From a virus, in IMG/VR virus record IMGVR_UViG_3300036715_000227, positions 2,353 through 66,352 of that record: 64,000 nucleotides of DNA; one strand, given 5' to 3'. The position numbers and the translations under genes are program-made. Below the pieces are notes generated by a model that saw nothing but the letters and a program-made list of their open reading frames with translations, was not told the origin of the DNA and ran no database searches. This document shows, piece after piece, positions 2,341-27,549 of this stretch. Every line of letters starts with the position of its first letter. The first letter of the stretch is position 1.

Positions 2341-4512
2341 TTAGTACGGCAACACTTGTACACTATCATACACTCTGTTTCTGTATTCTGCGGGCGTGGC
2401 ACTCTCAGAAAACTCAACAATAGGGCTAACCAATTTAATAGTGTTCACATCAAATTTAGTGAACCTGTTGGACTTTTTATTGTAATCACTTATGAACGGA
2501 TTCGTAAAGTCCACGATCACAGTGGCATCATTGAACCAGAATCCAGCCTTAGGTTGCACTGACTCTCCCTTTTCTAAGTAGGTCAGTACACCATAATAGT
2601 ACGCAGGATCGTCGATTAAATCTATTTCATCAACTACGAATTTGTTAATGATAATATATTTGTCTTTAATAATGTTACCGTGCTCGTCAATAATTGTATC
2701 ATTGACATCTTTATTAAAGAATGATACCGTTAACTTATTCGTGTCCGCCTGTATCAAATCAGGCAAACTAATGGTGTGAGTGCCTTCTTCTAAGGTCGTG
2801 TTGTATATAATGTCGTCATTATATGTTATACGCAAACCAGGGAGATCACCTTTGCTGTGACTTACATTCACTGCTAACTCAACATTAATTGGTTTAGAAG
2901 CTGCTCCTACTTTTTCCATTACTAACCCAAGGAACTCGTCCCAGTGTTCATAGTAATACTCTGATACGTTGACAATGTCTTTGTTATATCCATACTTGGC
3001 AAATATCTCATCGTGCCATTCTTCTGCTTCTGCTGCCTTAGCTGGCACACTAAGGGAAAGAGACTTAGTGTAACCTTCAGACATAATAGGAAGTTTATAC
3101 TCGTGGCAAAGTCTATGAAAGATTGCCCATCTAATATATCTTTCTTTATATGTTAGTGATGGATTCTTGGGCGTCCACCAAATTGACTTTTCTTTCTTAA
3201 TGAGCTCTGACTTGCCTTCGCGGTCATCCCACGCAGGAGTACCTTCGCCTATTTCGAATGTTCGCCCGGGATTAATGGCGTTGAGTACACCTATACGAGC
3301 ATACTTCATTAAGTTGAACGCAAGCACACATGTCTCGATGAAGTTATCCCATTTCTCTGCCCAATGACCCACAATCATTAAAGGAATGAATTTAATTCCA
3401 TTCTTCTCGAAGTGTTCGGCATCCCAATACAATCCTTCAACTACTGTTTTCTTATTCATTGCAAGTAAGACTTCATTACTGCCTGTTTCGACACCAATGG
3501 ACACACTACTAAGTCCGGAACGTCCTAGTAATTCATACAATTCAGGCTTCATTTGCCCAGCTGGCCTACTAATCCATCCAGATGCTGACCAGCGAATCTT
3601 TTTGTCAGGATTGGCATCATTATATTCTGCTAATGCAGCGGCCATCGCTTTGAGGTTTTTAACACTACCGTTAGCCAAGCTGTCAAGGAAATTGAAATGT
3701 CGTATGTTATACTTCTCAGCAAGGAAAACTATTTCACGAACAATGTTATCACCTGTTCTAAACCTGTATTTAAATCCTTGTACCTTGTTTACATCGCAGT
3801 AGTCGCAATTACGAACACAACCCTTGCTACTAAACACAGGAAGTTGCACTGTCCCTTCGTAACCAAACGTAGCATAATCGGCTAAGCGAAAGTCATCGAA
3901 GTTTGAGAATGGGAATTCTTGTTTGTTATAATCAGCATAGAAAAACTTTTGAGATTCCACTGAGCCGTTCTTCAATAATTCAATTAACGGTTCTTCTCCG
4001 TCCCCTGAAATAACCACGTCAACTACTTTGCGTTTCTTCACAAACATATCATAGTTCAGCATCTTTTCAGCCGATGTAACTTTGAACATCTTTTGTGCTA
4101 ATTCAAGAATAGGAATAGGTGCACCGTTCCCGCCCACTACAATGTTAATTTCTGGATTTAATTTTTTGATTCTCTCTGCCAACAAGTAAGTGCCCACATG
4201 AGAGTAAAGCGAGAATACACTAAAGCCAACCCATCGTGGATTCATGTCCACTATGTTCCGGGCCCACAAGTCGAGAAAGTCTGATATTATTTTTGCATTA
4301 TCTTCGCTAATTGGATCTTCTTCGTAGAAGTAATGCTGGAGATCGTTAAACTTTGTTAGATTGTTGTCTACATGTTTATACAATTCCATTCCGACGTCGA
4401 AAGTCTTACATGTCAACCCTTCAGCCTGAATGGCACCTTTCAAAACGGCAAGTGCCAGTGGGGGGTTTTCCAGCTGCGTGAAAGGAACCGAAACCAGTAC
4501 TATGTCGAGCAT
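2341..4512 (-). CDS. cobalamin-binding radical SAM protein
   Basis: PPLALAVLKG..VGFS..IVVGG..GDGE B12-type domain; SKGCVRNCDYC CxxxCxxC. Confidence 0.9.
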   Translation of the reverse strand: MLDIVLVSVPFTQLENPPLALAVLKGAIQAEGLTCKTFDVGMELYKHVDNNLTKFNDLQHYFYEEDPISEDNAKIISDFLDLWARNIVDMNPRWVGFSVFSLYSHVGTYLLAERIKKLNPEINIVVGGNGAPIPILELAQKMFKVTSAEKMLNYDMFVKKRKVVDVVISGDGEEPLIELLKNGSVESQKFFYADYNKQEFPFSNFDDFRLADYATFGYEGTVQLPVFSSKGCVRNCDYCDVNKVQGFKYRFRTGDNIVREIVFLAEKYNIRHFNFLDSLANGSVKNLKAMAAALAEYNDANPDKKIRWSASGWISRPAGQMKPELYELLGRSGLSSVSIGVETGSNEVLLAMNKKTVVEGLYWDAEHFEKNGIKFIPLMIVGHWAEKWDNFIETCVLAFNLMKYARIGVLNAINPGRTFEIGEGTPAWDDREGKSELIKKEKSIWWTPKNPSLTYKERYIRWAIFHRLCHEYKLPIMSEGYTKSLSLSVPAKAAEAEEWHDEIFAKYGYNKDIVNVSEYYYEHWDEFLGLVMEKVGAASKPINVELAVNVSHSKGDLPGLRITYNDDIIYNTTLEEGTHTISLPDLIQADTNKLTVSFFNKDVNDTIIDEHGNIIKDKYIIINKFVVDEIDLIDDPAYYYGVLTYLEKGESVQPKAGFWFNDATVIVDFTNPFISDYNKKSNRFTKFDVNTIKLVSPIVEFSESATPAEYRNRVYDSVQVLPY

Positions 4513-4536
4513 ATTTGTTTAATTTTGTTTAAGGAT

Positions 4537-4610
4537 TGGTGCCCCACGAGAGAATCGAACTCCCGTCCTCGGATTACAAAACCGATGTACTACCATTGTA
4601 CTAGTAGGGC
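4537..4610 (-). tRNA. tRNA-Thr(UGU)
   Basis: Loop TT-TGT-AA, CCA. Confidence 0.9.
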
Positions 4611-4665
4611 AATGTTGCTGCTAAAGTATTTATACGCAGATAAAGAATATGAATATTTTGTCGTG

Positions 4666-4691
4666 GCAAAGGGCACCTAAGTGCCCTTTGC
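4666..4691 (-). terminator. hairpin after DUF2828 gene
   Basis: Perfect inverted repeat GCAAAGGGCAC-CTAA-GTGCCCTTTGC. Confidence 0.6.
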
Positions 4692-4703
4692 GTCGCCTAC
4701 GCC

Positions 4704-6125
4704 TTAGGCGTAATCGTAACGTGGCTTCATAATAGCAGACTTCATGATGCCTTCTGGTGTGAATTCATCCATATCTGCGCCTAGCAATGCTGCTACAATA
4801 GCTGGGCTAAAGCCGCTAACCAATGCTGCACCAGACTTGTCTGCCTTAACAGGTGTGTTGTCACTAGAATTTAAATTCCAAAAAATTACACTAGGCATAG
4901 TGTAACCAGCAGCTTCGTACTTACGTTCGATCATTTGCATGGCCGAGTCGTCGTGCGTTACGCATCGGTCGAATTGCATGTCCGACAAGATCAATACCAT
5001 TGCTGGCATATCAGCTTGTGGGACAGAACCCTTAACTGCAACATCAAGGATCTTTGCAAATGCCTTGTTGATGTCAGTGTTCATTGCCCACTTAGACTTA
5101 ACCATTTGTTCCATCTTTTGGATGACGTCGCCCTTTAGGGTCAACAGTTCTGGCGAACCAGAGAAGGTTAAGAATGTGTCCTTGAACGCACCCTTGTTCT
5201 TATCAGCCAAGTACAATCCAAGGCTAACTGCAACGTCCAGGCAGGTTGTAACACCTGAACCAGACTTGCCACCTGCTGCGCAGGTCATAGAACCAGATAC
5301 GTCAACTAGAGGCAGGATACTTGCGTCACCTACGTAGTTTGGCAATGCGTTCCATTGCGCGATGATGTGATCCTTTTCAGTCTTGTTGTAGGAAGCACCG
5401 TAGGTACCAATCCCCTTCAAGACGTCGTATGGGAAAACTGCTGCGGCGTTAACCTTAACAGTTGGATCACCCTTCACCAATGCTGCAACGTATTCTGCGA
5501 ACTTGGTTGTGTTACGGCTGAAAGCCTTCTTGTAACGAGCCGAAGCTACAGATGGAACGTGCGAGAAGTTGATGTTATCCCAGTCCTTAGCGCACATCGC
5601 GGTTTCAACGACGTTAGTCATTGTAACCAGAGACTTACGGTAGAACTTTGGAGACATACCAAAGTGTTCACGGATTTCACGTGCGACTTCACCCTTACGA
5701 GGAGTCCACTTTGCAGCCAGACCGTTCTTTGCACGAAGTGCATCGCCCAGCATGTTGTATGCTGCATCCTTCATTGGCTTGGTCTTGAATACGAACAAGT
5801 CGTCCCAACGTCCAAGTTCAGGGATCTTAGCCAACAGAGCCTTAGCTGCGTCGGTATCAGCGCCTTCCAGGTACGCCATGATGTCACGGAAGATTTGACG
5901 TTCACCTGCACCACCACGAGCATCCCTGCTCCAGAGAGCAATGCGTAGAGCCAAATCCTTATCTTCCGCAAATGCAGAGACAAACTGTGGCACGATATTC
6001 TTCCCGCGTGATGCTCCTACATTATAGAAGAAATCAACACAGGCAGATGCCGAACTCTTGCGTGCCTTCATCCCATTGGATGTGCGAGATTCTTGGTTGG
6101 CGATTGCCTTTACAAATGCGTTCAT
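4704..6125 (-). CDS. DUF2828-type TROVE-like/vWA protein (Ro60-like RNA-binding candidate)
   Basis: RDARGGAGER, GRWDDL, LAAKWTPR helical region; vWA MIDAS DVSGSM, SDMQFD, IFWNL, LVSGFS. Confidence 0.85.
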   Translation of the reverse strand: MNAFVKAIANQESRTSNGMKARKSSASACVDFFYNVGASRGKNIVPQFVSAFAEDKDLALRIALWSRDARGGAGERQIFRDIMAYLEGADTDAAKALLAKIPELGRWDDLFVFKTKPMKDAAYNMLGDALRAKNGLAAKWTPRKGEVAREIREHFGMSPKFYRKSLVTMTNVVETAMCAKDWDNINFSHVPSVASARYKKAFSRNTTKFAEYVAALVKGDPTVKVNAAAVFPYDVLKGIGTYGASYNKTEKDHIIAQWNALPNYVGDASILPLVDVSGSMTCAAGGKSGSGVTTCLDVAVSLGLYLADKNKGAFKDTFLTFSGSPELLTLKGDVIQKMEQMVKSKWAMNTDINKAFAKILDVAVKGSVPQADMPAMVLILSDMQFDRCVTHDDSAMQMIERKYEAAGYTMPSVIFWNLNSSDNTPVKADKSGAALVSGFSPAIVAALLGADMDEFTPEGIMKSAIMKPRYDYA

Positions 6126-6138
6126 TTTTGATTTCCTT

Positions 6139-6178
6139 CAGATTACTTTTAAAATATTGAAATTGCTGTTAATAACCT
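6139..6178 (-). promoter_or_regulatory. CAGCAA-stem module in the DUF2828 leader, abutting the RBS
   Basis: AGGTTAT-TAA-CAGCAA..GTAATCT followed by GAAGGA-N9-ATG. Confidence 0.6.
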
Positions 6179-6196
6179 ATTACTATAGAGTATTTG

Positions 6197-6392
6197 ATTT
6201 AGTGCCCCGGGCTTGATTCCGGATTGTAACACACTACCAGTTACCTGCGTTGGGATATGCGTCCACATTGCCCACTCCACTTTCTCTCGATACCTTCGCA
6301 GTCTGGTCCTCACACCACAAGTCGCTAAACAAGGGACCAAATCTTTGTATTTCTGCACCGTATCTATGGTTTCCTTCAACCACGCCACTAAA
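6197..6392 (-). ncRNA. candidate closed structured RNA (~195 nt)
   Basis: Terminal stem ATTTAGTG/CACTAAAT, internal hairpins TGGTCC/GGACCA and CCGG/CCGG. Confidence 0.4.
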
Positions 6393-6407
6393 TTAAACAC
6401 TCTATAT

Positions 6408-6667
6408 AACAGGATGAGCGAGACAGTAAGAGATTATCGACTAGCCCCATCCGCAGTATATCGCTTCAAGTCTCACCAGTCTATCTAAATTATTCTAACT
6501 TAGAAAACTATCTCATATTCTACGAGCACTATTGCATGTTCTACGCACACTATCTCTACGGAAATTGGGGTATACCACCGAAGCAGCCACTTGCGTGCGC
6601 CCAACCTTGAACTAAATCGTCCTTCAAGCAATTTTAAGTATAGTTTTATGGTTGCTGAATTCATCCT
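6408..6667 (-). ncRNA. CAGCAA-stem (Y-RNA-like) RNA, long form
   Basis: AGGATGA-ATT-CAGCAA..TCATCCT-GTT, GCAA/UUCG-capped hairpins. Confidence 0.65.
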
Positions 6668-6675
6668 ACGCAAAC

Positions 6676-6810
6676 AACGGGATAGTTGCCTACTTTTTTC
6701 TTTTATCGAGAGGAACTGTCGAAACCGCTCTATCTAATCGAGCCCAATGCAAGCACTGGGTTATCTTTTAGCATTCCATAGTGATTGTATGGGTTGCTGT
6801 ACCTATCCCT
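6676..6810 (-). ncRNA. CAGCAA-stem (Y-RNA-like) RNA
   Basis: GGGATAG-GTA-CAGCAA..CTATCCC-GTT. Confidence 0.65.
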
Positions 6811-6840
6811 TTAAAACTCTTTTAACTAACTTAAGTATCT

Positions 6841-10451: not shown

Positions 10452-10567
10452 AACAGGATCACTTTAATTGGCGGCTGTGCTACCATTACACTAACAAGAC
10501 ACTCCGTGCCCTGCCCGGAATCGAACCGGACTCGCTGCTTGGATTTATTAAATGCTGGACTGATCCT
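10452..10567 (-). ncRNA. YrlA-like RNA: CAGCAA stem plus permuted tRNA domain
   Basis: AGGATCA-GTC-CAGCA; T arm CCGG-TTCGATT-CCGG, loop-closed acceptor, D arm GTGT-AATGGTA-GCAC; TGATCCT-GTT. Confidence 0.8.
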
Positions 10568-10572
10568 AAAAC

Positions 10573-13562: not shown

Positions 13563-13619
13563 AACAGGATTCGCTTTTTTCATAAACGTTGAAATTTTTG
13601 AATTTGCTGAAAGAATCCT
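13563..13619 (-). ncRNA. CAGCAA-stem RNA, minimal form
   Basis: AGGATTC-TTT-CAGCAA..GAATCCT-GTT. Confidence 0.7.
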
Positions 13620-13625
13620 AAAACT

Positions 13626-13708: not shown

Positions 13709-13783
13709 TGGTGCGACCGGGGAATTCCGACATCCCGACCAAGAGATTATGAGTCTCCTGCTCTTCCTCTGAGCTACAGTCGC
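13709..13783 (-). tRNA. tRNA(CAU), Met or Ile2
   Basis: GGAGA-CTCATAA-TCTCT; odd T loop. Confidence 0.8.
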
Positions 13784-13908: not shown

Positions 13909-13982
13909 TGGTAGGACGCCTCGGTACCGACCCGAGTTCTACAGGGTAAAAGCCTGTTGCTTCACTTTAAAGCTTGCATCCC
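13909..13982 (-). tRNA. atypical tRNA-Lys(UUU)
   Basis: ACAGG-CTTTTAC-CCTGT; T loop GTCGGTA; D loop lacks GG. Confidence 0.8.
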
Positions 13983-14339: not shown

Positions 14340-14520
14340 TTGTTTTAAGGCTGAAATCTTGTAACTGTATGTCAGGGTCGACCCTTTACACTTCCCCCGA
14401 AAATTAGGGGCTTGCTTCCATTACAATAATACAAACATCCTTACCACTTGTGCTGCAACACGCATGGACAAGAGCCAAGACTCAGTCTGCTTCAATTTGC
14501 AGATATCAGCCTTAAAACAA
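14340..14520 (-). ncRNA. 181-nt RNA closed by the same 15-bp stem (copy 2)
   Basis: Identical TTGTTTTAAGGCTGA/TCAGCCTTAAAACAA ends, divergent tRNA-like interior. Confidence 0.62.
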
Positions 14521-16134: not shown

Positions 16135-16893
16135 TTAAAACTTACGTGCCAGTATATGTGCAGTTTGCAATATACGTGGCGGATATGCGACCTGATTCGG
16201 GGCCGCAAACCAACCAGGATTAAAATCCTGTGTTGTATTAAATTTCTCTATCTTCCATCCCATGTAGTATAACACCGATGTTAACCACGGAACGTTGGGC
16301 ATAGCAACTAATGTCACTGAATCGCCCATATTCTTACTGTTTGAGTTGCCCGAGAAGTTACTCGTTGCACTATTAAAGCGATATTCTAGTGATGGAACAC
16401 CGGTTACTGATGAAACAGTCTCTGTTAAAATCATCTGCTTTATGTCGCTGTTTGATATAACTTCCAACACTGAGATAGGATTTGCAATCTCTCCGAGAAA
16501 CTTGCAAAGCATAACAGTGTCAATACCATGACACTCGTTATACAAGTAATCTTGCTTTTCTGCATCACCAAGTAAAAACTTGTAATTCTTTACACTCAAT
16601 TGATCAAATGCATAGTCTGCTATTGCATTTGGCTCTGGCTTGATGTTTATGCCTGTTACTGATTGTGCACCACGTTGAGCTGCAATGAACGGCATGTATC
16701 CGTGATAAGAACCAACATCTAAAATGTTTTTGTCTTTGATGTAGCTATCATCACTAAACGCAAGCTCGTATCGTTGCCTGTCGGGAGTGATGTAATCTAC
16801 ATTGCGTTGTGGCACATACTCTGCATACGGCACAAGTCCGGTATGCGCGAGATGGTCAAAGTATTGTTTATAATAGTAACTTGGAATTAGCAT
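16135..16893 (-). CDS. class I SAM-dependent methyltransferase
   Basis: ILDVGSYHG..GAQSVTGI motif I/II. Confidence 0.8.
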   Translation of the reverse strand: MLIPSYYYKQYFDHLAHTGLVPYAEYVPQRNVDYITPDRQRYELAFSDDSYIKDKNILDVGSYHGYMPFIAAQRGAQSVTGINIKPEPNAIADYAFDQLSVKNYKFLLGDAEKQDYLYNECHGIDTVMLCKFLGEIANPISVLEVISNSDIKQMILTETVSSVTGVPSLEYRFNSATSNFSGNSNSKNMGDSVTLVAMPNVPWLTSVLYYMGWKIEKFNTTQDFNPGWFAAPNQVAYPPRILQTAHILARKF

Positions 16894-18401
16894 TTTATTA
16901 ACTCAAGTAATTTTGCTTTGTATTCTGCATGGTGATTTGGTTTCAACTCTTGCTGAATTTTACCGAACGGGAAATCATTAAATTTTACTTTACTGATCTC
17001 TTTGTAATCAAATCCATACGATGCCAATTGCATCGTAAAATATGGGTTCATTACTCGTTCAGTTGTTTTCCACATAGAGTCATTGTTGAATATGTCAGCA
17101 AGTTCAATTGCTTTGTCTCTATTCATATCAGCCGAATTCCAGTTAATACTAAATTCATCACTACCAGTACCAATGTCTGTGTAACCAAAGCTTGCGTAAT
17201 CTGCACTGAACTCACTGGTGTAAGTTAACGAGCCCGGTTGCTCGATTGTTAACGGATGCCAGTACCACGAGTCAAGCTTAATTTCATGCGCCACTAATCT
17301 ACGGCTAACTTCAGTGACTTGCTCCACGGATTCACCAGGTAATCCAACGATAAGACTTGCGTGTAATATCATGTCGGGATACTTATCCTTAATGAACGCA
17401 ATCATCTCGATCATCTTGTTGGTGTTATATCCTTTGCCAATAGACTTTGCAGCCGCAGGAGTAAAGGATTCTATACCAAAGTGCAGTCCTCTAATTCCCA
17501 TGTTATACAATATATCAAGGGTCTCGGGTTTAATGCAAATAAGGTCCAATCTATGGTAACCCCAAAGCACAGGCTTAAACGAAAGCTCACTTACAACTTT
17601 CTCGAATGAGCGTAATTTATCTATGTGATCGTTGAATGTGTCATCAACGATAATGTAATTCTTAATACCGAACTTGTCGTAGTTGTATTCAAACTCAGCT
17701 TTGATTAAGTCTGGTCGTTTAACAAAATCTAAATTTTGCTTTCCATTCAATGGGTATGAACAGAACTTACATTTAAAAATACAACCACGACCAACTTCAA
17801 TTGGGATGCACTTATGGTTTACGACATCTATGTCTAACCATTGCATATCTTCGTTAGCGAAATCGTATGACTTGGCATAGCGATCATCAATGATTACCCT
17901 GCCATATAAATTCTTCATTGCGTTTTCTAACTTAGATCCGTTAACCAGATGATTCATTAGATTAACGATACTAACTTCGCTGTAGCCCAACGACACATAG
18001 TCAATGTTTTTGTTGTTGTATTGTGCATTGACTTTAGATCCGCCGACCACGACTTTAACCTTGTCGCTTTTGCTTCTAATGTACTTAATGACAGATTTCT
18101 CAAACTCTTTTCCCTGAGGGAAAATCAGAGTAGTGTCAAGGTCTTTAATTCGCGCCGCCTGCTTATCCACTGCAACTTTGTCCATAACAAATGTAGTAGA
18201 GAACCCTACTAAAAAGGTTTCATCGGTTAGCGCAGTATCTATCAAATTAGTGAGTTCATCATACGACCATTCGGACAAGTGATTAACTACCAAACATGTA
18301 AATCCATTTTTCCGTAACGAATGCGCAAGTTTGTACGGACCAATGGAAGGAATACTTACCAAGTGGTCAGTGACGTCAGAGAAAATGATTGCATTATACA
18401 T
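16887..18401 (-). CDS. cobalamin-binding radical SAM protein
   Basis: VGFSTTF..VVVGG; EVGRGCIFKCKFC; DDTFN; FGIES; IVGLPGE. Confidence 0.9.
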   Translation of the reverse strand: MYNAIIFSDVTDHLVSIPSIGPYKLAHSLRKNGFTCLVVNHLSEWSYDELTNLIDTALTDETFLVGFSTTFVMDKVAVDKQAARIKDLDTTLIFPQGKEFEKSVIKYIRSKSDKVKVVVGGSKVNAQYNNKNIDYVSLGYSEVSIVNLMNHLVNGSKLENAMKNLYGRVIIDDRYAKSYDFANEDMQWLDIDVVNHKCIPIEVGRGCIFKCKFCSYPLNGKQNLDFVKRPDLIKAEFEYNYDKFGIKNYIIVDDTFNDHIDKLRSFEKVVSELSFKPVLWGYHRLDLICIKPETLDILYNMGIRGLHFGIESFTPAAAKSIGKGYNTNKMIEMIAFIKDKYPDMILHASLIVGLPGESVEQVTEVSRRLVAHEIKLDSWYWHPLTIEQPGSLTYTSEFSADYASFGYTDIGTGSDEFSINWNSADMNRDKAIELADIFNNDSMWKTTERVMNPYFTMQLASYGFDYKEISKVKFNDFPFGKIQQELKPNHHAEYKAKLLELIKC

Positions 18402-19200: not shown

Positions 19201-19279
19201 TGGTAGGGGGTCTAGGAATCGAACCTAGTTCTTCTACTCTTCAGGCAGACGCTGGAATCACCAGACTAGCTCACCCCCC
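19201..19279 (-). tRNA. tRNA-Phe(GAA)
   Basis: TCTGC-CTGAAGA-GTAGA. Confidence 0.87.
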
Positions 19280-19860
19280 AAAAACTTCTCGTATTGTGCT
19301 TTTTCCATAATGACAATCTTTTTGTCAGTATGTACTTGCATAACAATTCTCATCTTTTCTTTATCGTTGCCCCACCAATGCCCCTTAATCTCTAAGTAAA
19401 CATCATATGCAGGCAAGTAAAAATCCGGAGTATATGAACGAGTTTTTCCGTCCATCTCATACTCTAATATATCTTTATTCGTTTTAAGCTTAGTCCAGGC
19501 GATGCCCAGTTCCTCAAGCTTTAACGCAACATTTCTTTCCCAGGTGCCTTGGCATTTTTGGCCTGCAACCTCGAACCATTTACATCTGCCACCTTTGTTG
19601 TTAGTAGATGCTTTCTGGCTTAAAATTTTCTTAGTAGCATCACTATGCGTTTTACCTGCAAATATTCCGGGTAATCCTTTGTTCCACGGAACAGGCATCA
19701 CTGTGCCTTCTTGTTTAGCAAACACATACTGGTTGCTACCTTTCTTGCCGGTCATACCATTTTTGTACACTCTAGTAGCATTTAACGGGCAGCATCGTTC
19801 GTGATTGCGTAACGAGTTATCGTTTTTACATTCTTTTTGGCAAAATTTACAAATAAACAT
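19258..19860 (-). CDS. Zn-finger/NUMOD3 + PD-(D/E)XK putative homing endonuclease
   Basis: CKFC..H, PWNKG, YTPDFYL..YLEIKG; late promoter ATAAATA; stop inside tRNA-Phe. Confidence 0.75.
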   Translation of the reverse strand: MFICKFCQKECKNDNSLRNHERCCPLNATRVYKNGMTGKKGSNQYVFAKQEGTVMPVPWNKGLPGIFAGKTHSDATKKILSQKASTNNKGGRCKWFEVAGQKCQGTWERNVALKLEELGIAWTKLKTNKDILEYEMDGKTRSYTPDFYLPAYDVYLEIKGHWWGNDKEKMRIVMQVHTDKKIVIMEKAQYEKFLGGELVW

Positions 19861-19893
19861 AGTAACCTCTTATGTTTATTTATGCATACTAAC

Positions 19894-19924
19894 GCTAGTG
19901 CTCTACCAACTGAGCTACCGATGC
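19894..19924 (-). pseudogene. tRNA 5' half
   Basis: GCATCGGTAGCTCAGTTGGTAGAGCACTAG, then the endonuclease promoter. Confidence 0.65.
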
Positions 19925-19931
19925 ATAATAT

Positions 19932-19992
19932 AACAGGATCAACTTTTAGTTTTCGAACAAAGAAAATTTTTAAAGTTTGCTGAACTGATCCT
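19932..19992 (-). ncRNA. CAGCAA-stem RNA, minimal form
   Basis: AGGATCA-GTT-CAGCAA..TGATCCT-GTT. Confidence 0.7.
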
Positions 19993-19997
19993 AAAAC

Positions 19998-20117: not shown

Positions 20118-20294
20118 GTATAATGTTTCCCAGAATTTAATTCCGTATTTTTGTTTACAATAATTAAATTCTGCCTGGAGATTTTCTCCGAATTTGTATT
20201 CTACTAGATCTTTTGTTTGCTTAAATTTAGCATCGTCTCTGTCTTCAACGGCTCTTCGGACCGCCGCTATGACCCAATTAGCGTAACGGGGCAT
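20100..20294 (-). CDS. hypothetical protein
   Basis: 64 aa, translationally coupled to upstream gene; stop inside tRNA-Leu. Confidence 0.55.
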   Translation of the reverse strand: MPRYANWVIAAVRRAVEDRDDAKFKQTKDLVEYKFGENLQAEFNYCKQKYGIKFWETLYAQVAQ

Positions 20295-20944
20295 TAAATA
20301 TCTAACACAATAGGCGCATTAGCGTGCCTACTTTTTCTATCTGACATTGCCACATTGTAAATGTCGCAACCATCAACTTTAACGTGACCATACCCTTCGT
20401 GTATGTGTCCGTGTATCCATAACTCCGGTTTCTTATCTGCTAAGAAATTCGGATAAACGCGATTACCAACGCTTGTGCCTGTCCTACCTGACACGTCTAA
20501 GTATCCATACACTGGTGCATGGGATACGACAATGTCATACTTGCAGTCAGGCAGCTTGCTCAAGTAATCTGCAATTTCTGCTTCAGTGCTACTAAATGCC
20601 CACCTGGGCAAGTTAGTGACTTGCGGCAATCCAAGCAATCGCTTTCCATTGGGCAGCAAGCACGATGTATAATCGTTGTTACCAGGAAGGCCAACTACTG
20701 TTACCCCGGCACGTCGCATATCTTGCAATGCTGGGCCAGGATAAACTTGTAAGTGGAAATCGTGATTTCCGGGAACAAAAAGCTTCACCTTGTGTGGCAG
20801 TGCGGCAAGCCATTCGACTGCCCATCGCCATTCGTCTAAGTAACCTGTTGTCATAATGTCACCTGCATGTACAAACACATCCCCGTCCGGGATCTTCTTT
20901 GGGTCTACGGGTGAATGGGTGTCGCTGGTTGCTACGAGACGCAT
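20294..20944 (-). CDS. calcineurin-like metallophosphoesterase
   Basis: SDTH, HAGD, PGNHD, SHAP, HGHIH. Confidence 0.92.
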   Translation of the reverse strand: MRLVATSDTHSPVDPKKIPDGDVFVHAGDIMTTGYLDEWRWAVEWLAALPHKVKLFVPGNHDFHLQVYPGPALQDMRRAGVTVVGLPGNNDYTSCLLPNGKRLLGLPQVTNLPRWAFSSTEAEIADYLSKLPDCKYDIVVSHAPVYGYLDVSGRTGTSVGNRVYPNFLADKKPELWIHGHIHEGYGHVKVDGCDIYNVAMSDRKSRHANAPIVLDI

Positions 20945-21225: not shown

Positions 21226-21291
21226 AACAGGCAAAGGTTGTCGACTAAGACACCAAAAGTTTAAGTCTGTATTGTTTGCAGAACTTTGCCT
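21226..21291 (-). ncRNA. CAGCAA-stem RNA variant
   Basis: AGGCAAA-GTT-CTGCAA..TTTGCCT-GTT. Confidence 0.65.
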
Positions 21292-21297
21292 AAAACT

Positions 21298-21378: not shown

Positions 21379-21493
21379 AACAGGATGCCTTAATAGACGG
21401 CATGAAGCCGTCGCTCTGCAGAGCGTACTACGCGATGTGCGTGGTGTTGGAATCGAACCAACTGATCTAAAAGATCGTTGCTGCAAGCATCCT
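21379..21493 (-). ncRNA. YrlA-like RNA with four-arm permuted tRNA domain
   Basis: AGGATGC-TTG-CAGCAA; GTTGG-TTCGATT-CCAAC; closed acceptor; GCTC/GAGC; GACGG-CTTCATG-CCGTC; GCATCCT-GTT. Confidence 0.75.
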
Positions 21494-22359: not shown

Positions 22360-22447
22360 TGGTGTTGCATGTAGGATTCGAACCTACTACCCTTGGAAGG
22401 GCACGGGGTTACAGCCCGCTCTAGCACTCCAACTCTAGCGATACAAC
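22360..22447 (-). tRNA. tRNA-Tyr(GUA)
   Basis: CT-GTA-AC, long variable arm. Confidence 0.88.
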
Positions 22448-22454
22448 ATTAAAT

Positions 22455-22516
22455 AGCAGGATAGTTTTTACGGTTTTGATTAAAAGTCAAATGTAATTGT
22501 TTGCTGAACCTATCCT
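22455..22516 (-). ncRNA. CAGCAA-stem RNA carrying a tRNA-Lys(UUU) anticodon stem-loop
   Basis: AGGATAG-GTT-CAGCAA..TTTGA-CTTTTAA-TCAAA..CTATCCT. Confidence 0.72.
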
Positions 22517-22521
22517 ATAAC

Positions 22522-22596
22522 TGGCGCCGTAGACGAGACTCGAACTCGCCTGACTCACATCGACAGTGTGGTGCCCTCCCCGAGAGCTACTACGGC
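22522..22596 (-). tRNA. tRNA-Asp(GUC)
   Basis: CT-GTC-GA, G73. Confidence 0.87.
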
Positions 22597-22935: not shown

Positions 22936-23010
22936 TGGAGTCGCGTACGGGGATCGAACCCGCCTGCACAGGATGAAAGCCTGTTGACCTCACCAAAAGT
23001 CAAACGCGAC
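22936..23010 (-). tRNA. tRNA-Glu(UUC)
   Basis: ACAGG-CTTTCAT-CCTGT. Confidence 0.88.
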
Positions 23011-26790: not shown

Positions 26791-27549
26791 TTATTCACGG
26801 ATACGATAAAAGCCTTTGTCCAACCAAGTAGTAAGGATGTCTTCCTGTCGTACATAGTTATTCTTATTAAGACTGTGCTTAATGCTGTCATTGATGAGGT
26901 CAGCGTCGGCAAGGTCGTGCCACGACGTTTTGCGCGGGTCCATAGGAGCGTGACCACTCTTGTACACTGCTGCATAAAGCCACGGATCGTTCATATTCTT
27001 GTAGAAATATGCGTCTTTACAGTCGAATCCGTTCACTGCAAGCATGTAAATCAGCGATGTGATGTTGTGGTTGTAGTATACCCCGCTTGGCGTATTATTG
27101 TGCATACGATTGTACAGATAGTGAATATTCTGTGGCATTGCCATCACGAGCATCCCGTTCTCTGACATTGCATTGCTCCAGTTTTTAAGAGTTTGCAACG
27201 GATTTACTGCATACTGGAACGCATCATGGCACCACATCAAATCTACTTTTCGGGGAAATAGATTGCTATCCTCAAAATTCTTTTGTATGGGCTTTACATT
27301 CTCTAGCGCAAGGATCTCTTTGTTGATTTTAGATAAGTCTTCGTCGACTGCATAAACTATGTAGTTATGTGGTTCAGGGGGGTCATCGCGTGTTTCCAAT
27401 GTTGCCCACCATTCTACGTCGAGACCAGCGCCACAGCCCATATCTGCGACTACAGTCAAACTGTCTAGAAAACTATCGTAGCCGTACAATAGTTCCAAAA
27501 TTTGCATACTGTGGTCATGCGAGTCATATGCGTTTCTGAATTGTGCCAT
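26791..27549 (-). CDS. SAM-dependent methyltransferase
   Basis: VADMGCGAG, VDLMWCHD. Confidence 0.85.
   Translation of the reverse strand: MAQFRNAYDSHDHSMQILELLYGYDSFLDSLTVVADMGCGAGLDVEWWATLETRDDPPEPHNYIVYAVDEDLSKINKEILALENVKPIQKNFEDSNLFPRKVDLMWCHDAFQYAVNPLQTLKNWSNAMSENGMLVMAMPQNIHYLYNRMHNNTPSGVYYNHNITSLIYMLAVNGFDCKDAYFYKNMNDPWLYAAVYKSGHAPMDPRKTSWHDLADADLINDSIKHSLNKNNYVRQEDILTTWLDKGFYRIRE

Follow-up and report, generated by a model that had tools for sequence, protein, structure and literature searches.

The element at positions 22455-22521 of the analyzed DNA is one copy of a widespread and apparently undescribed family of small phage RNAs that sit among tRNA genes and next to a gene for a protein with a predicted Ro60-like fold, and that display look-alikes of tRNA parts. 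In this copy the displayed part resembles the anticodon arm of tRNA-Lys(UUU), which points to a role in the contest between phages and bacteria over tRNA. The window, that is the whole stretch of DNA that was analyzed, comprises 64,000 nucleotides of the IMG/VR virus record IMGVR_UViG_3300036715_000227 (positions 2,353 to 66,352 of that record). The element lies on the minus strand between tRNA-Asp and tRNA-Tyr of an array of more than 48 tRNA genes. An earlier note, made from the sequence alone, had described an RNA with a CAGCAA stem displaying an isolated tRNA-Lys(UUU) anticodon arm, had named two weaker parallels in the same window and had inferred that these RNAs are decoy substrates for defence nucleases such as PrrC that cut tRNA-Lys(UUU). 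In this study, the structure, relatives and genomic context of the element were analyzed computationally. The observation in the note was confirmed, whereas its interpretation was only partly supported.

Results

Structure of the element

The plus strand at 22475-22491 is TTTGATTAAAAGTCAAA, and the minus strand, on which all of the tRNA genes lie, reads UUUGA-CUUUUAA-UCAAA. Escherichia coli K-12 lysT carries GTTGA-CTTTTAA-TCAAT, the arm that the earlier note had given for enterobacterial tRNA-Lys, and 15 of the 17 bases agree (lysT was taken by coordinates; a blastn search of E. coli genomes with the tRNA-Lys of phage Alf5 gave no match). The CAGCAA stem described in the note is likewise a minus-strand reading. 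The module, termed F here (22455-22521, minus strand), runs from a 5' leader GUUAUA through the terminal stem P1, the motif UUCAGCAAAC, the cargo and the P1 3' strand to a UGCU tail. The P1 5' strand (A-GGAUAG, 22510-22516) pairs with the 3' strand (CUAUCC-U, 22458-22464), and the conserved single-stranded motif UUCAGCAAAC, the presumed protein-binding signature, occupies 22499-22508. In the cargo hairpin (22475-22491), 22487-22491 pairs with 22475-22479 around the loop 22480-22486. The hairpin is carried on an asymmetric internal loop by helix P2 (22468-22496), in which UUAC (22493-22496) pairs with GUAA (22468-22471). P2 is present in the minimum free-energy fold, but three of its four pairs are invariant in 20 relatives, and there is therefore no covariation evidence for it.

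The fold is not significant on its own (MFE −9.5 kcal/mol, z −1.23, with 24 of 200 shuffles folding at least as well); its significance comes from the relatives. In the 20 members of the subfamily of this copy, the 5 bp cargo stem is paired in 100% of cells, with two covarying pairs, and P1 is 100% paired, with three covarying pairs. The A-U pair of P1, which was not required by the scan, holds in 47 of 48 diverse members, the remaining one being G-U. In the 7 nt loop (alignment columns 38-44) only the third and fourth letters (tRNA positions 34 and 35) vary, whereas the other five letters and the first base 3' of the loop, U39 (column 45), are the same in all 20, giving a fixed C32-U33...U36-A37-A38-U39. 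The loop is CUUUUAA in 13 members, CUUCUAA in six and CUGCUAA in one.

Module F is not a tRNA: neither ARAGORN nor the Rfam tRNA model (RF00005) gives a hit at 22455-22521, and only the anticodon arm of the cloverleaf is present. It is flanked by tRNA-Asp(GUC) (22522-22596), the CCA end of which lies 6 nt upstream of the GG of the module, and by tRNA-Tyr(GUA) (22360-22447), which starts 11 nt after its CC; both are on the minus strand.

An RNA family in phages

The element belongs to a large RNA family, with 248 modules (223 unique) in 90 of 119 fetched IMG/VR fragments plus the window. Each copy has a covarying terminal stem, a UUCAGCAA(A) motif, a variable cargo and a 3' UGUU. However, the fragments were fetched with a pattern taken from the RNA itself, and the scan required GG...CC pairing and the motif, such that several motif positions were fixed by the scan and part of the apparent conservation is by construction. 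Variants with the motif (U/A)ACAGCAA occur in Felix-O1-like, Listeria, Mycobacterium and Campylobacter phages, and the motif UUCAGCAAAC is exact in three copies in the window.

The window holds eight clear copies and one weak copy, all on the minus strand. A covariance model, R1, finds the four short copies at E values of 1e-11 to 1e-17. Module F scores 66.1 bits over its full length (E 4.4e-16); module B (13563-13624; cargo UUUCA-ACGUUUA-UGAAA) scores 64.4 bits; module C (19932-19997; cargo UUUUC-UUUGUUC-GAAAA) scores 69 bits (E 6.8e-17); and module D (21226-21296; cargo of the GCUAAAC-UUUUGGU-GUCUAG-CGACAA type) scores 51.1 bits (E 8.5e-12). Module E (21382-21493) carries a circularly permuted tRNA-like body, comprising a GAUC-UUUUA-GAUC hairpin, a T-arm, a loop-closed acceptor-like stem, a D-arm-like hairpin and one further hairpin; its fold has a z-score of −5.44, with none of 200 shuffles as good. 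Module A (10454-10568) has the variant motif UCCAGCAU and a cargo with a T-arm, a closed acceptor-like hairpin and a D-arm, and R1 gives only a weak partial match of 16.3 bits. Module G (6404-6668) has the P1 stem GGAUGA/UCAUCC and a 233 nt cargo of unknown nature, and lies in tandem with module H (6679-6812; GGGAUAG-G-UACAGCAA...CUAUCCC-GUUG), for which R1 gives a weak match of 15.3 bits. The possible small module I (6137-6183; GGUUA..AACAGCAA..UAAUC-UG), which was read by eye, is weak (R1 12.9 bits, E 0.68).

The modules are closely tied to tRNA genes. Of 240 modules, 239 are co-oriented with the nearest tRNA; a tRNA 3' end lies within 10 nt upstream in 107 of 235 modules (mode 6 nt; modal spacing 6-7 nt), and a tRNA start lies within 15 nt downstream in 107 of 196 modules (mode 10-11 nt).

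An Rfam search of the element, at gathering scores and at E ≤ 5, gave no family, and the only recurrent sub-threshold hit among the modules was RF01414. A megablast search of the region against GenBank phages gave only one 83-base tRNA-like match. No description of this RNA family was found in Rfam 15 or in full-text literature searches, although the 22 phages with YrlA-like RNAs listed by Chen et al. (2014; PMC4201824) may overlap with the tRNA-like members. A search on DUF2828 found no paper on phage RNA, a search that did not extend to the RNA-repair paper of Burroughs and Aravind (2016).

Cargos resembling tRNA parts

Across the family, 75 of 222 unique cargos carry a stem plus a CUNNNAA loop, against 1-2 in reversed controls. 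Among 136 unique short cargos, 81 have a hairpin of at least 3 bp with a 7 nt loop (shuffles 6.8 ± 2.2), 60 fit Y32-U33-R37 (0.6 ± 0.8) and 50 fit CUNNNAA (0.1 ± 0.4). The earlier note had held that its reading would fail if the loops of homologs were no more anticodon-like than shuffled AT-rich sequence, and this is clearly not the case. However, single-linkage clustering at 70% identity merged 128 of the 136 short cargos, and the enrichment counts cannot therefore be treated as independent events. The commonest cargo triplets are UUU (22), UCU (12), UGU (11), UGA (8) and GUU (5).

Of 68 mid-size cargos, 42 carry a T-arm, against 0 and 1 in the controls; the D-arm pattern that was used was crude. 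ARAGORN recognized a tRNA across the permutation junction in five of these 68 cargos (six of 68 doubled cargos gave a call) and in one of 68 unpermuted cargos, against 0 in reversed and shuffled controls. 'Permuted tRNA' therefore holds strictly for a minority.

The two weaker parallels of the earlier note fare differently. In the type at 19932-19992, a 5 bp stem and a 7 nt loop with U at loop position 2 occur in 14 of 15 members, but only six of these 14 have a purine at position 6, and the window copy does not. In the type at 21226-21291 (16 members), the loops are of 7-9 nt with a shifting register (UUUGGAU, UUUUGGU, UUUUGGUU and others), and the resemblance to a Gln UUG loop proposed in the note is not a conserved feature and is not supported.

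A protein with a predicted Ro60-like fold

The window contains a gene at 4704-6125 (minus strand) encoding a 473-amino-acid protein with the Pfam domains DUF2828 (E 1.2e-22) and DUF7788 (E 1.1e-46) and assigned to PHROG 850, 'RNA-binding protein'. Modules H and G, and possibly I, which sits just upstream of the ribosome-binding site, lie upstream of this gene, whereas module F lies 16 kb from it. Of the 119 fragments, 30 hold a homolog of this protein; in 27 of these 30 a module ends within 130 nt upstream of the start codon on the same strand, and in 22 within 50 nt, often as tandem modules. The same pairing holds in four distant cultured lineages, namely Felixounavirus Alf5, Listeria phage List-36, Mycobacterium phage MkaliMitinis3 and Campylobacter phage CP8. 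However, Stenotrophomonas phage DLP_6, which carries the gene, showed no module near it in a simple scan.

By sequence the protein does not match Pfam TROVE, and a phmmer search of PDB sequences found nothing relevant. For the AlphaFold2 model, which is of moderate confidence (pLDDT 75), all 13 Foldseek PDB matches at E ≤ 0.001 are Ro60/TROVE entries. Eleven of these have E values of 1.3e-7 to 1.9e-5 and align over about 483-564 columns, with TM values of 0.37-0.59 (0.5-0.6 to Ro60), and the following hits are vWA/MIDAS domains. The predicted fold matches Ro60/TROVE over its full length; the HEAT-repeat ring plus von Willebrand A domain fold is thus matched at the level of prediction. The top hits include Thermus phage phiLo Ro60 (9kop and 9l5y, the best match), D. 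radiodurans Rsr, and Xenopus and human Ro60. GenBank annotators call the homologs 'Ro-like RNA binding protein'. A search of the ESM Atlas returned only DUF2828 clusters, mostly viral, and gave no information on amoebae.

Comparison with known RNAs

Bacterial Y RNAs of the YrlA/YrlB type, the partners of Ro60 (Rsr), are small RNAs closed by a stem between their ends, encoded beside and on the same strand as a Ro60-family gene, often in several copies, with a protein handle, an effector module that mimics tRNA (T-arm, D-arm and closed acceptor-like stem) and links with RNA-repair genes such as rtcB (Chen et al., 2014; PMC4201824). The present family shares these features; proximity to the gene holds for the family and not for copy F, which carries only the arm. 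However, the motif is UUCAGCAA(A) or ACAGCAA, the Ro-binding signature GNCGAAN0-1G or GGUCCGA is absent, and no Rfam Y-RNA family matched. In addition, the putative partner is Ro60-like only by predicted fold, and many members are embedded in tRNA arrays at fixed spacing. Many display only an anticodon arm, the one tRNA part that YrlA is described as lacking.

Thermus phage phiLo encodes a Ro60 that binds two RNAs, Yrl1 and Yrl2, encoded just upstream of its gene (PMC12135203). Those RNAs were picked by the CGAA motif and bind a canonical Ro60, and no tRNA-array context or anticodon-arm cargo was found in that description.

The Class I RNAs of dictyostelid amoebae (Rfam RF01414; Kjellin et al., 2021; PMC7919456) share a length of about 60 nt, a 5' G, a 6 bp covarying terminal stem, a conserved unstructured motif immediately after the 5' strand (CCUUACAGCAA, against UUCAGCAA or UUACAGCAA here), a variable remainder and a 3' end C-UGU in which the C pairs with the 5' G. 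The Rfam model aligns full-length, exactly on the module boundaries, in five of five modules tested, but the scores (31 bits for module B and 23.7-25.6 bits for four of four modules in the sequence L105) are below the gathering score of 41.5, and F was not listed at E ≤ 5. The dictyostelid RNAs are eukaryotic genes with their own upstream promoter element, their known binder is an RRM protein and the authors report no such RNA outside Dictyostelia. This is a likeness of architecture only, and common descent is not shown. In the literature searched, DDB_G0281243 occurs only in the Class I preprint, which calls its function unknown.

The stable RNAs C and D (species 1 and 2) of phage T4 are also small RNAs of unknown function encoded in a phage tRNA cluster and matured with the tRNAs, but their sequences lack the stem-plus-CAGCAA architecture. 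The nuclease-resistant tRNA-Lys, tRNA-Thr and tRNA-Asn of phage T5 (PMC12409363, PMC10264068, PMC11555353) are an RNA-level answer to the PARIS defence centred on the same anticodon arms. However, those are working tRNAs that escape cleavage, whereas the present element is not a tRNA and keeps the target-like sequence.

Discussion

The explanation favoured here, with moderate confidence, is that the element is a small noncoding RNA of a large phage family, termed CAGCAA-stem RNA, that works like a Y RNA. That the variable cargo displays tRNA parts, and that in this copy it is an anticodon stem-loop of the tRNA-Lys(UUU) type with a covarying stem and a loop that is held constant, was shown by comparative analysis; the remaining steps, including expression, processing, protein binding and any action on nucleases, are inferred. 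From the fixed spacing and co-orientation, the RNA would be transcribed with the tRNA array and cut out by the enzymes that trim the neighbouring tRNAs, leaving a hairpin-closed RNA of about 60 nt with short tails (GUUUUA at the 5' end and UGUU... at the 3' end). From the gene linkage and the predicted fold, the terminal stem plus the UUCAGCAA(A) motif would be the handle at which the DUF2828/DUF7788 protein binds and stabilizes the RNA, as Ro60 binds the stem of Y RNAs, which are encoded next to Ro60 genes and mimic tRNA (PMC4201824). As a best guess, the displayed arm would engage proteins that recognize the anticodon arm of ANN-reading tRNAs during infection, either as a competitor for host anticodon-arm nucleases or as a tether that brings tRNA-acting enzymes to the Ro-like particle. 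A context of tRNA damage and repair is suggested by RtcB, which lies 1.3 kb from the gene in the Listeria phage, and by cluster L1 phage LeBron, which has a Ro-like protein, an RNA ligase and a polynucleotide kinase (PMC13148394). That this is a real structured RNA family is almost certain and that the cargo is a selected anticodon-arm mimic is very likely, whereas partnership with the Ro-like protein is probable and a role specifically as a nuclease decoy is doubtful.

The earlier note was right in its modular view of a scaffold plus cargo and in its reading of an anticodon-arm look-alike, but it missed the link of the family to a Ro60-like protein gene, which makes a Y-RNA-like ribonucleoprotein the better-grounded frame. 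Its own reading, a stand-alone decoy bound or cut by nucleases of the PrrC, RloC or AriB type in place of tRNA-Lys(UUU), with the Ro-like protein irrelevant or merely protective, remains plausible as a hypothesis but is less likely. The arm keeps U36-A-A-U-C|A41, the context of cleavage by the PARIS nuclease AriB (PMC12409363), U36-A37-A38-U39 is invariant in all 20 subfamily members, and the commonest triplets include the three main AriB targets, Lys-UUU, Thr-UGU and Asn-GUU. Furthermore, the phage's own tRNA-Lys(UUU)-like gene (13912-13982, minus strand; Rfam tRNA 38 bits, not called by ARAGORN) has the arm ACAGG-CUUUUAC-CCUGU, which differs from the mimic at positions 38-41, and the tRNA-Lys(UUU) genes of related fragments have other, GC-richer stems, a pattern expected if working tRNAs escape while a bait stays target-like. 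However, the host and its defences are unknown, and AriB needs contacts beyond the anticodon arm, as grafting the E. coli arm into T5 tRNA-Lys did not restore cleavage (PMC12409363). The triplet bias may simply reflect drift at positions 34-35 in one lineage, because the cargos are related, and many members carry cargos that are not anticodon-like (the D type, the Felix-O1-like and Listeria-phage copies and the 130-300 nt cargos). The tight linkage to the Ro-like gene is also left unexplained.

Other readings are less likely still. The position of some modules near the start codon of the Ro-like gene would suit an operator through which the protein controls its own mRNA, with copies elsewhere as by-products, but this is improbable because most modules, F included, lie between tRNA genes far from the gene, and an operator needs neither cargo diversity nor tRNA mimicry. 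Punctuation of the tRNA-array transcript for RNases, with the released piece having no function of its own, would fit the spacing and co-orientation, and copies B, C, D and F are each flanked by tRNA genes; however, only five of the 47 junctions between the 48 ARAGORN-called tRNA genes in the window carry a module, modules also occur without flanking tRNAs, in tandem next to the Ro-like gene and downstream of it in a mycobacteriophage, and a cut signal would not need a covarying cargo stem with a fixed 7 nt loop, nor T-arms, making this very unlikely. A decayed tRNA-Lys gene is only a remote possibility: although some relatives carry complete tRNA-like bodies, the same short architecture is kept in 20 relatives with compensatory changes and invariant flanks (AUACAU..., ...AACCGUAAAA) rather than random decay, the non-tRNA motif UUCAGCAA is conserved across phage lineages, and the Rfam tRNA model finds nothing here. 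A CRISPR repeat or anti-CRISPR RNA, considered because the leader starts GUUUUAG, was rejected, as the motif occurs once per unit, pairing is long-range around a variable cargo and there is no repeat-spacer periodicity. A mobile element or homing site was rejected on the basis of the co-orientation with tRNAs and of covarying pairs that include G-U.

A more far-reaching reading, which is unlikely but not excluded, is that phages from many lineages carry an RNA-based counter-defence organelle, in which a Ro60-like protein holds interchangeable CAGCAA-stem RNAs whose cargos are baits shaped like the tRNA parts that host defence nucleases attack (anticodon arms of Lys, Thr, Arg, Asn, Ser and Tyr type, or whole permuted tRNA bodies). 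The particle would soak up or sense those nucleases while the phage's own altered tRNAs keep translation going. In this view, the same RNA design (5' G, short stem, ..ACAGCAA, variable loop, C-UGU end) survives in dictyostelid Class I RNAs, which would be relatives or convergent copies, and this would suggest looking to amoebae for a TROVE-family protein partner.

If the favoured explanation is right, it adds a large unannotated class of phage noncoding RNAs and gives a function to a very common phage protein of unknown role: DUF2828 has 711 hits among 50,697 GenBank phage records and at least 8000 relatives in the protein collection searched (only the 8000 best candidates were scored, of which 7999 passed). 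The likeness to dictyostelid Class I RNAs, the mechanism of which has been open since 2004, offers a concrete lead. The finding would bear directly on how phages cope with tRNA-cleaving immunity such as PARIS, PrrC and retrons, a question accessible in existing systems (Felix-O1-like coliphages in E. coli K-12 and cluster L phages in M. smegmatis). It would extend the Ro60-Y RNA principle to a second protein family and a different RNA handle, and would show that the displayed module can be swapped among tRNA parts, including the anticodon arm.

Genomic context and structure of the element

The window is part of a 66-kb fragment of an uncultivated virus, with a CheckV completeness estimate of 19%, and its replication and recombination genes are T4-like, comprising a RecA/UvsX-like gene, a gp32-like gene and GIY-YIG homing endonucleases. 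It carries an extraordinary tRNA array, in which 48 tRNA genes were called by ARAGORN, all on the minus strand, and a few more were added by Rfam. The element therefore has to be read on the minus strand, where it sits between tRNA-Asp (22522-22596) and tRNA-Tyr (22360-22447). The minus strand reads CCA-GUUAUA-GGAUAGG-UUCAGCAAAC-AAUUACA-UUUGA-CUUUUAA-UCAAA-ACCGUAAAAACU-AUCC-UGCU. The earlier note reported a perfect hairpin at 22475-22491, and this observation was confirmed, the hairpin being UUUGA-CUUUUAA-UCAAA at that position. The enterobacterial arm with which it had been compared was also correct, since Escherichia coli K-12 lysT has GTTGA-CTTTTAA-TCAAT, so that 15 of 17 bases agree. Although the single-sequence fold contains the hairpin, it is not unusual (z -1.23, with 24 of 200 shuffles folding as well), and significance had to come from relatives.

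The same architecture occurs several times in the window. The order is a tRNA CCA end, GUUUUA, a 7-8-bp terminal stem (P1) starting GG(A/U)U, U(U/A)CAGCAA(A), a variable cargo, the closing strand ending (A/U)(U/A)CC, UGUU..., and then the next tRNA. A covariance model (R1), built only from relatives in other contigs and with only P1 given as structure, found four short copies in the window at E 7e-17 to 9e-12, at 19932-19997 (copy C), 22455-22521 (copy F, the present element), 13563-13624 (copy B) and 21226-21296 (copy D). Longer-cargo copies lie at 10454-10568 (A), 21382-21493 (E), 6404-6668 (G) and 6679-6812 (H), and a doubtful one lies at 6137-6183 (I). In addition, a long hairpin at 14347-14513 (minus strand), closed by AAGGCUGA/UCAGCCUU, with UAUCUGCAAAU after the 5' strand and a 151-nt interior, resembles the module but lacks the UGUU tail and was not listed by R1. 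Between module G and the possible module I, about 220 nt of GC-richer, apparently structured sequence (6184-6403, minus strand), upstream of the Ro-like gene, gave no Rfam hit at E<=5.

A tRNA-Lys(UUU)-like gene at 13912-13982 (minus strand) was found by Rfam (38 bits) but not by ARAGORN, and has the loop CUUUUAC, a GC-rich anticodon stem and an unusual T-loop; two more tRNAs found only by Rfam lie at 13712-13783 (CAU) and 22939-23010 (UUC). Within 19201-19930 (minus strand), what looks like the 5' part of a tRNA gene (about 19862-19925; acceptor strand and D-arm) runs straight into a 200-aa ORF (19258-19860) with weak Phage_endo_I and zinc-finger matches, and an odd tRNA-Phe call by ARAGORN (19201-19279, anticodon at position 38) overlaps the end of this ORF; this may be a tRNA gene interrupted by an endonuclease insertion or intron. 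Two radical-SAM proteins (one with a weak B12-binding-domain match of 23.5 bits, below the Pfam cut-off of 32.1) and two class I methyltransferases are interspersed with the array (2341-4512, 16135-18401 and 26791-27549, minus strand); they have no PHROG match and may be RNA-modifying enzymes. A metallophosphoesterase (20294-20944) sits inside the array, and a protein annotated 'metallophoesterase' also lies near the Ro-like gene of Stenotrophomonas phage DLP_6.

Relatives of the module and conservation of the cargo

A 16-base pattern taken from the module itself (TTTTAGGNNNNNTTCAGCAAA) matched at least 119 IMG/VR contigs, although some matches are chance hits in coding sequence, and two protein-coding families account for many of them. 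A scan for GG...CC stems around the motif, which fixes some positions by construction, found 248 modules (223 unique) in 90 of the 119 fragments plus the window. These fragments are themselves tRNA arrays, with 1504 tRNA genes in all. Of 240 modules with a tRNA in the fragment, 239 point the same way as the nearest tRNA; the tRNA 3' end is typically 6-7 nt upstream of the stem, and the next tRNA starts 10-11 nt downstream. This is what would be expected of an RNA made as part of the tRNA precursor and released by tRNA-end processing, a step that is inferred. P1 covaries, with four of seven pairs changing on both sides in a 48-sequence alignment. Since the scan required pairing of the GG...CC heptamer, the 99.7% pairing there is by construction; however, the flanking A-U pair, which was not required, holds in 47 of 48 sequences, with one G-U.

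Twenty relatives share the cargo layout of copy F. The anticodon-like stem is paired in 100% of cells and two of its five pairs covary, one position showing U-A, A-U, C-G and G-C. In the 7-nt loop (columns 38-44), only the third and fourth letters (tRNA positions 34 and 35) vary, whereas the other five letters and the first base 3' of the loop, U39 (column 45), are identical in all 20. The loop is CUUUUAA in 13, CUUCUAA in 6 and CUGCUAA in 1, and one contig carries both a UUU and a UCU version. A second helix (UUAC/GUAA) under the arm is invariant and so has no covariation evidence.

Anticodon-likeness extends across the family. Among 136 unique short cargos, 81 fold into a hairpin with a 7-nt loop, 60 fit Y32-U33...R37 and 50 fit CUNNNAA, whereas dinucleotide shuffles give 6.8, 0.6 and 0.1, respectively. 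A scan of all 222 unique cargos for a 4-5-bp stem plus CUNNNAA gave 75 modules with 34 distinct stems, against 1 for reversed sequences and 2 for reverse complements. The short cargos are all related, and these are counts of sequences and not of independent events. The triplets at the anticodon position are UUU 22, UCU 12, UGU 11, UGA 8, GUU 5, GAA 4 and GUA 4, plus nine singletons. Real tRNAs of the same contigs use CUNNNAA loops for many anticodons (771 of 1504), and the cargo set is therefore skewed towards U36 types.

Mid-size cargos carry other tRNA parts. Of 68 such cargos, 42 have a 5-bp stem with a UUCRANY T-loop, against 0 and 1 in controls, and in 16 of them an anticodon-like arm precedes it. 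The order seen by eye in copies of the E type is arm, T-arm, loop-closed acceptor stem and D-arm, which is that of a tRNA body circularly permuted at the D/anticodon junction. However, only 5 of 68 were accepted by ARAGORN as a tRNA spanning the permutation junction (6 of 68 doubled cargos gave a call), so most are only tRNA-like. A recurrent long-cargo type, found in modules just upstream of the DUF2828 gene in several fragments (L040, L109, L086, L071, L011, L098 and others), ends in a T-arm-like hairpin GUGAG-UUUCGAAU-UCUCAC followed by UUGAAAGAAAAAGUAGAAA, of which module H has a degenerate version, and another long type shares ...GGAGGACCACCGUAAGGUGU...; the cargo families are evidently numerous.

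The earlier note had also pointed to two weaker parallels, which fared differently. The type of copy C keeps a 5-bp/7-nt hairpin with U at position 2 in 14 of 15 members, but it often lacks the purine at position 6, as does the window copy. The type of copy D, which had been described as Gln-like, has loops of 7-9 nt with a constant U-run plus GG but no fixed register, and this description is not supported.

The predicted Ro60-like protein and its gene

The ORF at 4704-6125 matches Pfam DUF2828 and DUF7788 and PHROG 850 'RNA-binding protein'. For an AlphaFold2 model (24-sequence alignment, pLDDT 75), all 13 Foldseek PDB matches at E<=0.001 are Ro60/TROVE proteins, including Thermus phage phiLo Ro60, Deinococcus Rsr, and Xenopus and human Ro60. 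The 11 listed align over about 483-564 columns with TM 0.37-0.59, and the next hits are vWA/MIDAS domains. A homolog is contained in 30 of the 119 fragments. In 27 of these a module ends within 130 nt upstream of the start codon on the same strand, in 22 within 50 nt, and two or three modules often stand in tandem; the three exceptions are one gene cut by the fragment end and two with the nearest module 0.5-0.8 kb away. In the window, modules H and G, and perhaps I, precede the gene.

The homolog occurs in 711 of 50,697 GenBank phage records, and is called 'Ro-like RNA binding protein' by mycobacteriophage annotators. Five lineages of cultured phages were examined. In Felixounavirus Alf5 the gene heads the tRNA array, which holds at least four modules (GAAGACCnn-UUACAGCAA...nnGGUCUGG). 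In Listeria phage List-36 three modules lie directly upstream of the gene, with RtcB, an RNA ligase gene, 1.3 kb downstream. In Mycobacterium phage MkaliMitinis3 three modules lie directly downstream, one with a permuted tRNA-like cargo and a CUGUUAA arm, and in Campylobacter phage CP8 two modules lie between the tRNA array and the gene. None was found by a simple scan in Stenotrophomonas phage DLP_6. The tRNA cluster of T4, which was read as a contrast, has other stable RNAs with a different architecture.

Discussion

The comparative data establish a conserved structured RNA family, its placement in tRNA arrays, its linkage across distant phages to the gene of a protein with a predicted Ro60 fold, and selection on tRNA-like cargos, including the present Lys-type anticodon arm. 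By contrast, release by tRNA-processing enzymes, binding of the stem plus CAGCAA motif by the Ro-like protein, and engagement by the cargo of proteins that recognize the anticodon arm are inferences, drawn without expression or binding data. The nearest precedent is the Ro60–Y RNA system, in which Y RNAs are encoded beside Ro60 genes and have a terminal stem as the protein handle and a second module that in bacteria mimics tRNA (PMC4201824). A phage Ro60 binds two RNAs encoded upstream of its gene and assembles with host PNPase (PMC12135203). Furthermore, jumbo-phage TROVE proteins have been placed among RNA-repair functions (PMC7824862), and the Ro-like protein of mycobacteriophage LeBron sits in a genome that also has an RNA ligase and a polynucleotide kinase, each of the three being toxic when overexpressed in M. 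smegmatis (PMC13148394). In this view the element would work like a Y RNA, but it fails one defining feature, the CGAA-type Ro-binding motif; no Rfam Y-RNA model matches it, and the protein belongs to a different Pfam family. It is therefore regarded as a variant on the Y-RNA theme rather than as a member. An earlier mention of some tRNA-like members cannot be excluded.

A likeness to dictyostelid Class I RNAs was also observed. The Rfam model of these RNAs (RF01414) aligned full-length, on exact module boundaries, in 5 of 5 modules tested (window 13563-13624, minus strand, and positions 3908-5855 of the sequence designated L105), at 23.7-31 bits, below the gathering score of 41.5. The published description is a 5' G, a 6-bp covarying stem, the motif CCUUACAGCAA, a variable rest and a 3' C-UGU (PMC7919456), which is the same architecture, and the Felix-O1-like and Listeria copies, which read (U/A)ACAGCAA, are closer still to its ..ACAGCAA motif. 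The likeness may reflect either descent or convergence. One of the four proteins pulled down with a Class I RNA is of unknown function (bioRxiv 10.1101/2020.04.05.026054).

The interpretation in the earlier note, that these RNAs are decoy substrates of tRNA-cleaving defence nucleases, is only partly supported. The nuclease AriB of PARIS cuts between positions 40 and 41, within a shared U36-A-A-U context (PMC12409363). Copy F has exactly U36-A-A-U-C-A41, and U36-A-A-U is invariant in its subfamily, whereas the tRNA-Lys(UUU)-like gene of the phage itself (13912-13982) reads CUUUUAC-CCUGU. This pattern fits a bait beside an escape tRNA. However, it is circumstantial; the host is unknown, AriB also needs contacts elsewhere in the tRNA, and many family members carry non-anticodon cargos. 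The decoy remains possible but unlikely, while the broader reading as an RNA of a Ro-like ribonucleoprotein is considered more likely than not.
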